A stretch of DNA of 34,485 nt from IMG/VR virus record IMGVR_UViG_2531839587_000015; one strand, written 5' to 3'. This DNA is from a virus. Its lineage: Duplodnaviria > Heunggongvirae > Uroviricota > Caudoviricetes. The notes beneath the pieces are model-generated. The model saw only the letters and a program-made list of their open reading frames with translations. It ran no database searches and had not been told where the DNA came from. The position numbers and the translations under genes are program-made. This document shows, in pieces, positions 25,615 to 28,484 of the stretch (positions are counted from its first letter, which is position 1; each line of letters starts with the position of its first letter).

Positions 25615-25730
25615 CGTTTACGGGATTCTGAAATCCCGTTTTTGCCTGTTTTGTGCGCGCTTCATATAGCGCTGCGCGTTTTTTGCTCATTTACGGGATT
25701 CGTGAGTCCCGTTTCTGTCTGTTTTTTGTT
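25615..25730. repeat. Two copies of a roughly 42-bp repeat, each with the palindrome ACGGGA-N8-TCCCGT followed by a T-rich tract, separated by a GC hairpin; candidate parC centromere/operator or replication-associated site
   Basis: Copy 1 at 25615-25655 (intergenic, upstream of parM); copy 2 at 25687-25730 (inside the last codons of A). Palindromes acgggattctgaaatcccgt and acgggattcgtgagtcccgt. Confidence 0.7.
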
Positions 25731-28484
25731 TCCACTGGTCAGGCCACCCCGCAGCAGGTCTGCTTTGCGGCTGGCGCGTTCAGTGGTTTCACTGATTCTC
25801 TGTGCGTGCTCTGCGTCGCGGATGGCGCGCAGCATGTCAGAAAGCACGGTAACGGGTGTTTTCATGGTGTTCTGGTCCTGCTGAAGTGTGGATGCCAGGC
25901 GTGCGGCGGCTTCAGGGTCTGATGCCCCCAGCTGTGCCAGATAGCTGGCGACCGGGTTATGGCGGATCTCCGTGCTGCTTACGCCATGATTACGGCTCAG
26001 ACGCTGCCAGAGCTGCGTGATTCGGCTGTCCGGGCGGGTATCCGGTTTGCGTACAATTTCAAATCCCTGCGGTGCAATGATGCTGCCGTCAACGTACAGA
26101 CTGCCGCCCCGTAACAGGTGCTGCATCTGTTGTTCACCGATATGCAGGCCGAGAGAATCAGCAGACTCCCGCCATTCTTTAGCGAGTAACTCGTGGTTAT
26201 CAGGCAAAGGCCGCTGCTGTTTGCGGCTCTGTGTCCAGTTCTGCATTTCATCGCTGCTGTTTTTTGCCTGTTTGTCACGAAGCGAACGCATCAGCGCCCG
26301 GCGTTCGTGCCGTTTCAGTGAGCGCATCCATTCATTTACTTCAACGCCGTCAGGAAGCTGCGGCCACGGTGCTGGCCGTTCTTCCGGCTGTTCTGTCCCG
26401 TTGTTGCCTGTTTCCTGTACACGGGGACAGTTATTGCCACGAGTCCAAGGGGCGGCAGGGCCGCCCTGAAGGTCAAAACCATTTTCGCGGGCGCTGTCTT
26501 CCGCTTCCGGTTTACGTCTTACCAGCTTCCAGTTATCCGGATGTGTGCACACACGGGAAGACTCCCCGATGAGTGGTGACCAGATCCCGTAAATCTGTAC
26601 GCTCTGTTCGCCGTAATCGTTCAGCTCATCTGCGAGGTCGTAGGCGGTGCGAATCAGGTAGTCTTGGCGTGGAACAAGTACGCCGCCCTGTTTCTCTATG
26701 TAGGAGGCAAAACACCCGGCATCAGCGGCAGCGAGCACTGCATCCATTGCGTCATCCTTCAGCCGTTGCGGGCCTTCCGGGTTGCGTGCCATCTGGCTGG
26801 CAAGGCGGCGCAGTTCACGCCACACCTGACGGGAGGGGATGCCAAAGAACTGGAACTGGCGGACCCGGTGAAGGCGCGCCCAGCCGATGGCGCGCTCCAC
26901 GCTCTCGGCCATTGATTTTCCGGTTTCGTGGTCAACGCGTGGCTTGCCCGTTTTCGGGTCGATACCATCCACGGCGCGGCTGTCCAGGTTCTTTCCGATG
27001 TAGGTGGCGATGTAGCTGGTCGGTGTGCCTTTTGAGCCGTCGACGTACTCTGCCTTAAAGCGTGGGGTAATATCATCACCCAGCTCGTGACGATCTTCCT
27101 GAATGGCAATATCGCGGGTGTGGGACACAATGGTGTCGATTTCTTCCGGATGAGCAAAGACCATCATATGCCAGTGCACGGTGCCGTCATGGTGAGGCTC
27201 CACCGTGCGGATGCCATACCAGCGCAGGCCGTCGCGGTTCAGTTTCTTGCGGACCGCCGCAAAAAACGAGTTAACCAGGTAATCGCTGGAGTCGCGCATA
27301 GTGGCCCCGTTCCATTTGGGATTCGGATGACCGTTCTCCGTTGTTGCGTGGTATTTTGACGGGCAGGTGACAGTCAGAAACACCGCTCTGTCGCCACGGG
27401 CTTCGGCCAGAAGTTCCAGCCCCTTCATGGTGGCCATCATTTCTGCCTTACGGTGAACCGGGTTACTTACTCCCGCGTAATACACTGTCTCAAGATCAAT
27501 CGTGAACCCGTCTTCGTTTTCCAGCATGAAACTTTTCAGGAAATCGCGTGTTTTCTCGCGCTGTGCGCGAAACTCGCTTAACGCATCCTGGCTCAGATAG
27601 GGCGATGTTTTTCTGGAAACCAGACAGGCGGCGCGGAGTTGTTCTTCTCTCCACTCGCAACGTAACAGCCACAGTTTGCGTTTCCACCATTCCGCACAGG
27701 TCAGGCGAAGGATTGCGCCCGGCAGCAGCTCCGTGTCTGGTTCGTTCCTCCGGCCTTTGTCTGTTGTCAGTGCGTCATAATGCGGAGGCATGGCGTGCAG
27801 GTGTAACGCCATGCGGGCCAGCATCTGATACGCCTTCAGCGTTACATCCATGGTCAGCTCGCCATCAGTCGCACCAAAGCCATCGCAGAGTTTTTCGAAG
27901 GTGCTGCTGAACATCGCCGCCGTCATGGTGGCCAGCGTCTGTATCTGGTGTTTGTTGAGCTGCGGCAGGTAAAGCAAATCGTCCAGGCGTTCGCGTCCGG
28001 CAAGGGAGCGATAACCCGGTGTCAGCCAGTGTCCGTCAGTGCGATCCAGACGTTCGAATATTTTGCGCAGGGTTCCGCGTGCATAGCGTTCTGCCTGCCA
28101 GCTCTTTTTGCCTTTCCGGCGATCGACTTCCTGTTTTTTGCGCAGGAAGGAGAGGTGGCGAATAAGCGGATCGCGCAGATAGGACGGCAGCAGGCGCAGC
28201 GAGGCCATGGCTTCATCCACCGCGCCGCGTGCCTGTCTTCTGGCGTCTCCTGCCAGCGTGATGGTTTTGTCCTGTTTTTCCTGTGCGTCCAGGCTTTTAT
28301 TAATCAGGTTGCCCAGTGGCGTGGCAGAGAACGCCGCATCAGCCTTTTCCTGTCGGCGCTCGTTCTCTGCCTGGTAGGCATCCAGCCAGGAGGAAAGCGC
28401 GGATTCAGGTGCGGGGATCCCCGTTCCTTCACGCCCCACTGCGTGGCGCGGTTGTTGCCAGTCCCTGATGTACTCTGTCGTCAT
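25662..28484 (-). CDS. A: gpA-like rolling-circle replication initiation endonuclease (940 aa)
   Basis: HUH-like HWHMMVF motif and the two-tyrosine active-site motif SYIATYIGKN, as in P2 A. Larger than P2 A (761 aa). Confidence 0.85.
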   Translation of the reverse strand: MTTEYIRDWQQPRHAVGREGTGIPAPESALSSWLDAYQAENERRQEKADAAFSATPLGNLINKSLDAQEKQDKTITLAGDARRQARGAVDEAMASLRLLPSYLRDPLIRHLSFLRKKQEVDRRKGKKSWQAERYARGTLRKIFERLDRTDGHWLTPGYRSLAGRERLDDLLYLPQLNKHQIQTLATMTAAMFSSTFEKLCDGFGATDGELTMDVTLKAYQMLARMALHLHAMPPHYDALTTDKGRRNEPDTELLPGAILRLTCAEWWKRKLWLLRCEWREEQLRAACLVSRKTSPYLSQDALSEFRAQREKTRDFLKSFMLENEDGFTIDLETVYYAGVSNPVHRKAEMMATMKGLELLAEARGDRAVFLTVTCPSKYHATTENGHPNPKWNGATMRDSSDYLVNSFFAAVRKKLNRDGLRWYGIRTVEPHHDGTVHWHMMVFAHPEEIDTIVSHTRDIAIQEDRHELGDDITPRFKAEYVDGSKGTPTSYIATYIGKNLDSRAVDGIDPKTGKPRVDHETGKSMAESVERAIGWARLHRVRQFQFFGIPSRQVWRELRRLASQMARNPEGPQRLKDDAMDAVLAAADAGCFASYIEKQGGVLVPRQDYLIRTAYDLADELNDYGEQSVQIYGIWSPLIGESSRVCTHPDNWKLVRRKPEAEDSARENGFDLQGGPAAPWTRGNNCPRVQETGNNGTEQPEERPAPWPQLPDGVEVNEWMRSLKRHERRALMRSLRDKQAKNSSDEMQNWTQSRKQQRPLPDNHELLAKEWRESADSLGLHIGEQQMQHLLRGGSLYVDGSIIAPQGFEIVRKPDTRPDSRITQLWQRLSRNHGVSSTEIRHNPVASYLAQLGASDPEAAARLASTLQQDQNTMKTPVTVLSDMLRAIRDAEHAQRISETTERASRKADLLRGGLTSGNKKQTETGLTNPVNEQKTRSAI

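Follow-up and report, generated by a model that had tools for sequence, protein, structure and literature searches.

Introduction

ParMRC is the standard example of an actin-like system for DNA segregation; its centromeres are described as tandem iteron arrays around a promoter, and the 20-bp units of the staphylococcal pSK41 parC site each take two ParR dimers. Here we analyze a pair of repeats upstream of the parM and parR genes in a 34,485-bp stretch of viral DNA (IMG/VR record IMGVR_UViG_2531839587_000015, the whole of which is called the window in the following), which is a P88-like P2-type phage (genus Xuanwuvirus, Peduoviridae). The repeat pair is real and very probably functional, and we consider it fairly probable that the repeats are the minimal bipartite, parC-like centromere or operator of this phage-borne parMR cassette, with two palindromes of ~20 bp to which ParR would bind.

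The parC site of R1 comprises 159 bp, with two repeat clusters flanking a 39-bp core; it is curved and U-shaped, and each of its 11-bp iterons is occupied by one ParR dimer (PMC2241845). In type II systems the centromere precedes the operon, and ribbon-helix-helix centromere-binding proteins treat direct and inverted repeats equivalently (PMC5016525). A segregation role for the DNA of an integrating phage has so far been shown only for the unrelated AlpAC of a corynebacterial prophage; this AlpACS system, from prophage CGP3 of Corynebacterium glutamicum, is induced at an early stage, and full replication and transport of the phage DNA depend on it (PMC5539076). We found no paper on the P88-type par locus, and the P88 genome paper is silent on partition.

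Results

Layout of the repeat pair

A direct-repeat search gave a single family with two copies of 42 nt, which are 81% identical and start 73 bp apart. This bears out the original prediction of a duplicated 42-bp element with ACGGGA-N8-TCCCGT centers, one copy being intergenic and the other lying within the last codons of the replication gene A; only the distance, given there as 74 bp, had to be corrected.

25614–25655, − strand: proximal 42-nt repeat unit TCGTTTACGGGATTCTGAAATCCCGTTTTTGCCTGTTTTGTG, from the repeat search
25620–25639, − strand: proximal palindrome ACGGGATTTCAGAATCCCGT, core at 25622–25637; its GGG starts at −52 from the parM ATG; intergenic
25687–25728, − strand: distal 42-nt repeat unit TCATTTACGGGATTCGTGAGTCCCGTTTCTGTCTGTTTTTTG, an A-rich leader plus the palindrome; its upstream edge lies at about the presumed left boundary of the par module (~25730)
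25693–25712, − strand: distal palindrome ACGGGACTCACGAATCCCGT (coding strand), core GGG-N10-CCC at 25695–25710; its GGG starts at −125 from the parM ATG; within the last ~22 codons of A

Each palindrome is made up of a GGGAT and an ATCCC half-site in inverted orientation, with 11 bp from the start of one to the start of the other. The pattern ACGGGA-N8-TCCCGT matches twice in the window, where 0.08 matches are expected, and none of 100 shuffles reached two matches; the related pattern GGGATT-N4-AATCCC with up to two mismatches finds the same two sites and no others in the window. The palindromes are 73 bp apart, which is about seven helical turns, and therefore both are on the same face of the helix. 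The AAAC or A-tracts start at 0, 10, 43, 73, 83, and 105 nt, near multiples of 10.5, and the whole layout spans the ~145 bp junction from ~25730 to 25586. No array of tandem direct iterons (~10–11 or 20 bp) was found; the window has two palindromic units (four inverted half-sites in all) and no additional copy.

Comparison with known segregation systems

The element resembles R1 parC, and also pB171 par1 and R100 stbAB, in that it lies directly upstream of a parM(StbA)–parR(StbB, PF10784) operon, as is characteristic of type II parC sites, with a cognate actin-like ParM and a ribbon-helix-helix ParR encoded alongside. Like R1 parC it is bipartite, with two repeat-bearing blocks around a core of 30–50 bp (~145 bp in total here, 159 bp in R1); its sub-sites are also spaced by 11 bp, one helical turn, and its phased A-tracts correspond to the curvature of the R1 site. 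The presumed binder is, as in the R1-type systems, a ribbon-helix-helix ParR homologous to PDB 2JD3. In contrast to R1 parC, with five direct 11-bp iterons per block (10 in total), each block holds one palindrome of two inverted half-sites (four in total). The phage site also has no recognizable promoter, unlike R1 and the R1-like loci L090 and L094, which have strong ones, the 3′ end of the upstream coding region reaches into the distal block, and the carrier is an integrating P2-like phage instead of a plasmid.

With pSK41 parC the element shares repeat units of 10–20 bp upstream of parM, those of pSK41 being bound by a ribbon-helix-helix ParR (PMC5016525). The pSK41 repeats are contiguous and direct, whereas the phage has two separated palindromes, and in our searches the two ParRs had no detectable sequence relation. 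The AlpACS system likewise combines a prophage-encoded actin-like protein with a DNA-binding adaptor, and its alpS sites are repeated upstream of the operon (PMC5539076). AlpACS is the nearest functional precedent, an example of a par-like system that serves an integrating phage. It uses unrelated proteins, however (AlpA does not belong to the PF10784 ParRs), comes from a different phage family and host phylum, and has as its alpS site a short TTAAnnG repeat in many copies, unlike the two palindromes found here.

The partition cassette and its surroundings

The 2.5-kb stretch around the repeats is 95–98% identical to Escherichia phages P88, 520873, 503458, and others. On the − strand the gene order is A, parM, parR, with a gap of 4 nt between parM and parR.

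25662–28484, − strand: gene A, 940 residues, rolling-circle replication endonuclease (Pfam Phage_GPA); stop TGA at 25662–25664
24626–25585, − strand: parM (StbA), 319 residues, actin-like segregation ATPase; PF06406 (StbA_N) 1.8e-79, PF21523 (ParM C-terminal domain) 3e-68
24310–24621, − strand: parR, 103 residues, ribbon-helix-helix adaptor; PF10784 (Plasmid_stab_B) 9.8e-24; N-terminal β-strand TRRISFYL; proposed binder of the palindromes
25594–25598, − strand: Shine–Dalgarno sequence AAGGA of parM, read from the sequence and kept in relatives

The ParR family profile matches PDB 2JD3 (StbB/ParR of pB171) with E = 8.8e-14. Because ParM matches PF06406 and PF21523 and ParR matches PF10784 and PDB 2JD3, the cassette next to A is a true type II partition module of the actin kind. 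P88-like phages are homologous up to exactly the parR stop codon, with variable cargo downstream; a parC site downstream of parR was rejected as a candidate on this ground.

The repeats travel with parMR and not with gene A

The window was compared with a Hafnia prophage (L215/L216) whose ParR is 75% identical to that of the window. L216 shares 55% identity with the window in the 570 nt of A that precede the repeats, 74.5% in the 145-nt junction, 87% in parM, 75% in parR, and 40% past the parR stop. The junction is thus better conserved than the adjoining A coding sequence, and the mosaic boundary at the start of the distal repeat (~25730) would be the left edge of the par module.

In L216 gene A enters the distal palindrome in another reading frame and reaches its TGA stop in the palindrome center (GGGATTCATGAATCCC); therefore A coding cannot explain why the palindrome is conserved. 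In a second Hafnia locus (L220) an unrelated open reading frame (ORF) of 167 residues between A and parM covers both copies and stops in the center of the proximal one. The gene upstream of parM in Plesiomonas (L219) is a 789-residue A with a different C-terminus, and in Enterobacter (L223) A and parM are separated by a small ORF and a methyltransferase. ParM homologues at 53–62% identity occupy the same slot downstream of gpA in other P2-like prophages.

The original prediction had named repeats in phages without parMR, as part of A or the origin, as the finding that would speak against a link with partition. No A gene with the same 3′ end that lacks parMR was found, and repeats and parM occur together in all 14 repeat-bearing phage records; the last ~140 residues of A are found only in P88-like phages. 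On the comparative evidence the repeats belong to the par cassette and not to A. The cassette would begin at the distal repeat, and A reads ~22 codons into the par upstream region until a stop codon is met. For annotation this shows that the last ~22 codons of the P88-like "gpA" are read-through into a regulatory region and not a conserved part of the protein.

Apart from the repeats, we observed that A residues ~800–940 (window 25665–26080) are not matched in other P2-like A proteins, whose alignment ends near residue 800; at the DNA level even the Hafnia relative is only ~55% identical here.

Site type follows ParR type

Within 220 nt upstream of parM, exactly two GGG-N10-CCC sites are present in every locus whose ParR has the β-strand TRR(I/V)SFYL. 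Their positions from the parM ATG are as follows.

Window: −125 and −52
Hafnia L216: −124 and −51
Salmonella L088: −125 and −52
Plesiomonas L219: −131 and −59 (GGGACAACAAAAACCC and GGGACAACACTAACCC)
Hafnia L220: −128 and −55 (GGGATTGAGGAAACCC and GGGTTCATTAAATCCC)

The two sites are spaced by 72–73 bp in all five loci, and such a pair arises by chance in a shuffled 220-nt upstream region with a probability of at most 5e-5 per locus. The five loci represent three independent par lineages with ParMs that are ~61–63% identical; since the layout is kept at this distance, it is not neutral non-coding DNA. In each phage both copies share lineage-specific inner bases, for example ATT...AAT in both P88 copies and ACAACA...AA in both L219 copies. 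The arms in L219 and L220 are complementary over 3–4 bp around a 10-nt center, too weak for a hairpin, and the distal site of L216 is a perfect 16-bp palindrome through its center. Because of these short arms and of the full symmetry of the L216 site, the comparisons favor a two-fold symmetric protein that would read double-stranded DNA over a hairpin of RNA or DNA.

Loci with other ParR types have other upstream elements, as would be expected if a type II parC site and its ParR vary together; the sample is small, with three independent lineages. Where the ParR has RRKI(M/Q/T)FY(L/I) (L089–L094), R1-like TTCTC/ATCTC iterons ~11 bp apart are found and no GGG-N10-CCC. The NRKISFYL cassettes of Serratia (L222) and Enterobacter (L223, L225) share with the window the slot downstream of gpA, the ParR family, and a two-part upstream element, theirs at roughly −120 and −55 from the parM ATG. 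Unlike the window they have no GGG-N10-CCC and instead a 19-bp inverted repeat, AGGAACGAAATAGAAAAAT ... ATTTTTCTATTTCGTTCCT. Together with its small flanking GC hairpins (L222 3882–3947 and the equivalents in L223 and L225) this repeat is probably a second phage-type parC layout. No consensus promoter is evident upstream of parM in these three loci on reading the sequence; the promoter scan was not applied there.

Searches for further TRR(I/V)SFYL lineages added few loci. Scans of viral contigs gave one locus with the Plesiomonas ParM as query and none with the Hafnia ParM, the phage records held only P88-like phages and phage D6, a ParR profile search returned mainly the NRKISFYL and plasmid types, and a metagenome scan only P88-like and iteron-type loci. 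A further candidate (P0031) is on a contig that begins inside parM. Exact matches to the pattern in viral contigs outside P88 (n = 47) have no flanking sequence in common and were set aside as chance matches.

P88-like prophages carry at least two kinds of ParR, which are ~55% identical overall with identical N-terminal 18 residues, next to ParMs that are 98% identical. The divergence is limited to the middle and C-terminal part of the protein, as in L003 4001–4315 (the prophage in the IncC plasmid pC-Ec2-KPC) and other E. coli variants. The junction of the pC-Ec2-KPC prophage with its divergent ParR is unchanged; as a test this is powerless, because the N-terminal 18 residues of ParR are unchanged too.

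Transcription of the cassette

A scan for consensus sigma-70 promoters found no sigma-70-like site in the junctions of the window, L216, L219, and L220. By hand, −35/−10 hexamers can be picked out in the core and beside the proximal site; they were rejected as weak and unconserved, and the TATAT of the hairpin loop is missing in Salmonella L088. For comparison, L090 and L094 with their R1-like upstream layout have 11/12 sigma-70 promoters flanked by iterons. The candidate that is left for an operator role is a conserved box just downstream of the proximal site.

25604–25615, − strand: GATTAATTAATC box; an ATTAAT motif is kept there in all four GGG-N10-CCC-type loci; below the threshold of the sigma-70 scan

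The ATTAAT box lies 3–14 nt downstream of the CCC of the proximal site and could be a weak −10 element or a part of the ParR region. Because no recognizable promoter is present in the phage-borne junctions, parMR is probably co-transcribed with A, that is, from the early operon through A. The original prediction had offered a ParR-binding parC with its promoter or a regulator operator. By comparison these two readings fit best, since the repeats travel with parMR, keep position and spacing, and track the ParR type; the promoter is not supported, as the phage-borne junctions have no sigma-70-like site.

In the variable cargo downstream of parR two 10/12 sigma-70-like matches were seen, at 23978–24006 (+ strand) and 24181–24154 (− strand). 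The + strand match faces parR and parM and would drive antisense transcription.

Variation among P88-like sequences and the central hairpin

In 90 distinct P88-like sequences changes are found in the palindrome center and in the outermost pair, and the GGGA/TCCC arms are nearly invariant. None of these sequences has a compensatory double change in either palindrome, which therefore fits sequence readout rather than a hairpin. Per-site diversity over the 90 junctions was tried as a test of constraint and abandoned, the family being too shallow (0.05–0.057 at third codon positions, 0.044 in intergenic sequence).

Between the two copies the original prediction had placed a GC-rich hairpin with a T6 run, which is indeed present.

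25653–25684, no strand assigned: central GC-rich hairpin and A6/T6 run, spanning the A stop TGA (25662–25664); hairpin at ~25653–25678, T6 at 25679–25684 on the + strand

The hairpin is found in the P88 and Hafnia L216 types only and is missing in L219 and L220; among its variants the GC stem is kept in most, with compensatory changes only sporadically. At position 25669 the window has C and 89 of 90 distinct relatives have A (GCGCTATAT versus GCGATATAT); the C gives a rare and the most stable form of the hairpin, with −10.5 kcal/mol on the sense and −14.2 kcal/mol on the antisense strand.

Alternative explanations

The sites could bind a protein other than ParR (A, a host nucleoid protein, or a different early phage protein) and serve at the end of A as an accessory element for replication or termination. 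Such a role is suggested by the position of the distal site inside A, where the P2-type origin is also located. The sites follow parM, however, and not A, since another ORF covers them in L220 and A is a 789-residue protein with a different C-terminus in L219, and the site type tracks the β-strand type of ParR. Homology to a mapped origin of the P2/186 type is also not found at the repeats: the 186 rep_origin (U32222:28576) maps to window ~26463, ~700 bp upstream. We regard a binder other than ParR as unlikely.

Inside A we also noted a block of 50 nt (window 26419–26468) that is ~90% identical in diverged P2-like phages (Fels-2, SEN8, and Klebsiella and Yersinia phages); the 60-nt bin 26401–26460 is 90% identical to Hafnia L216. 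This block is probably the nick region of the P2-type origin, as alignment of the A proteins places the 186 rep_origin at ~26463.

Another explanation takes the two palindromes and the central hairpin as three tandem intrinsic terminators on the + strand, antisense to A and parM, which would halt transcription coming from the variable cargo or from an antisense parM promoter before it enters gene A. A consensus scan does flag all three, each as a stem followed by a T-rich tail on the + strand, and counts 14 terminator-like sites in the region where 4.6 are expected; the same pattern is seen on the antisense strand of Hafnia L216, and in the window the 8-bp stem of the distal copy is complete on the + strand only, by virtue of a T7–G14 wobble that becomes a C–A mismatch on the coding strand. 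About half of the relatives have T at this mismatch position and thus a perfect palindrome. The pattern is not general, however, as L219 and L220 keep the two sites with neither T-rich tails nor stable stems and have no terminator-like site, so that a conserved GC stem-loop with U-tract is absent on either strand: there is none on the sense strand, and the antisense one is confined to P88 and L216. One-sided substitutions, too, favor neither strand consistently, since they leave a G–T pair on the − strand in the proximal copy (41 sequences) and on the + strand in the distal copy (at least 40). Neither an antisense promoter nor a gene that would feed such terminators was found, and their place would be 1.3 kb past any cargo gene. 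We therefore doubt that antisense termination is the function of the repeats.

It is similarly improbable in our view that the repeats act as an RNA structure in the sense A–parM transcript, with local hairpins or a distal–proximal helix serving mRNA processing, mRNA stability, or parM translation. The 155-nt sense RNA of the junction folds at −36 kcal/mol (z = −5.0), the minimum-energy fold pairs the distal with the proximal copy around the central hairpin, and the GC stem of that hairpin is mostly kept, with a few compensatory changes (CGTGC/GCACG in one sequence, a changed stem in Hafnia). The antisense strand, however, folds equally well (z = −4.6), because any two similar palindromes would. 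A compensatory change was found in neither palindrome and a U-tract is absent from the sense strand, complementarity in L219 and L220 is limited to 3–4 bp, and the one-sided changes favor opposite strands in the two copies, which gives no signal of RNA.

That the repeats are a functionless scar left by a local duplication of the ancestral A 3′ end when par was acquired, as the original prediction had also considered, is very improbable, for although the proximal copy in the matching frame encodes KQAKTGFQNPVND followed by TAA, resembling the KQTETGLTNPVNE of the distal copy in A (hand translation), just one of the seven codons that differ between the copies has a synonymous change, the copies do not flank the module (both lie upstream of parMR with no third copy in the window, so that they are not a target-site duplication), and the layout with its 72–73 bp spacing persists at ~61–63% ParM identity under different overlapping ORFs and frames, in a junction more conserved than the neighboring A sequence.

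Discussion

We thus return to the minimal ParR-binding site. The repeat pair is best explained as a new minimal palindromic layout of the type II partition site and not as a categorically new class of element. In the mechanism that we propose, ribbon-helix-helix ParR dimers (β-strand TRRISFYL) would bind the half-sites; the two ParR-loaded palindromes together with the helically phased A-tracts would bend the intervening DNA and form a small folded nucleoprotein complex, and this complex would capture the ends of ParM filaments and so move the excised or replicating phage genome. The ParR complex may also repress or otherwise modulate the expression of parMR.

Several points weigh against this proposal. 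Four half-sites are few compared with the 10 iterons of R1, and the central GC hairpin and the T-rich tails are not accounted for by a parC site. With no sigma-70-like promoter detected either between the sites or flanking them, a target for a classical operator role is lacking. Among the 90 distinct sequences from viral contigs, 12 have a degenerate arm in the proximal palindrome (AATCCT), as do 12 of 54 P88-like loci from metagenomes; in two metagenome loci a distal arm is degenerate (AGGATT). The correlation between ParR type and site type comes from only three independent lineages. Finally, the carrier prophages are almost always chromosomal (1440 of 1442 places in E. coli), where the need for a centromere is not obvious.

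Of 5426 complete E. coli genomes, 1303 have the A–parM junction (query: positions 25560–25800 of the window), with 1440 occurrences on chromosomes and 2 on plasmids. A partition cassette of the plasmid type is thus very common in integrated prophages. Two of the related records deserve mention. In the chromosome of E. coli EC7518 (L227 2900–3045) a degraded prophage has a DUF4761 gene near the immunity region joined to ...TAAACGATTAATTAATC-parM; the deletion removed both palindromes and ends exactly where the proximal one has its 3′ edge. The other record (H46, NZ_CP148288.1) is a 34,461-bp E. coli "plasmid" with a P88-type ParR (83.5% identical) and nearly the size of the window, which could be an excised or episomal P88-like phage genome.

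More tentatively, the locus may be a stripped-down segregation machine of P2-like temperate phages across the Enterobacterales, with two palindromes in the end of the replication gene and no promoter of its own, which would therefore be switched on together with rolling-circle replication. Such a machine would move or space excised and replicating genomes during lytic growth or establishment and not ensure plasmid-style inheritance, and with four half-sites its parC might be the smallest natural one known.

If ParR binds the palindromes, the phage site would be a minimal natural centromere with which one could ask how few ParR dimers are able to hold a ParM filament, and the pairing of the β-strand residues R-S-Y with GGGAT/ATCCC would give a simple readout of ParR specificity. 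It would then also become testable why ~24% of complete E. coli genomes have a plasmid-partition cassette in a chromosomal prophage.

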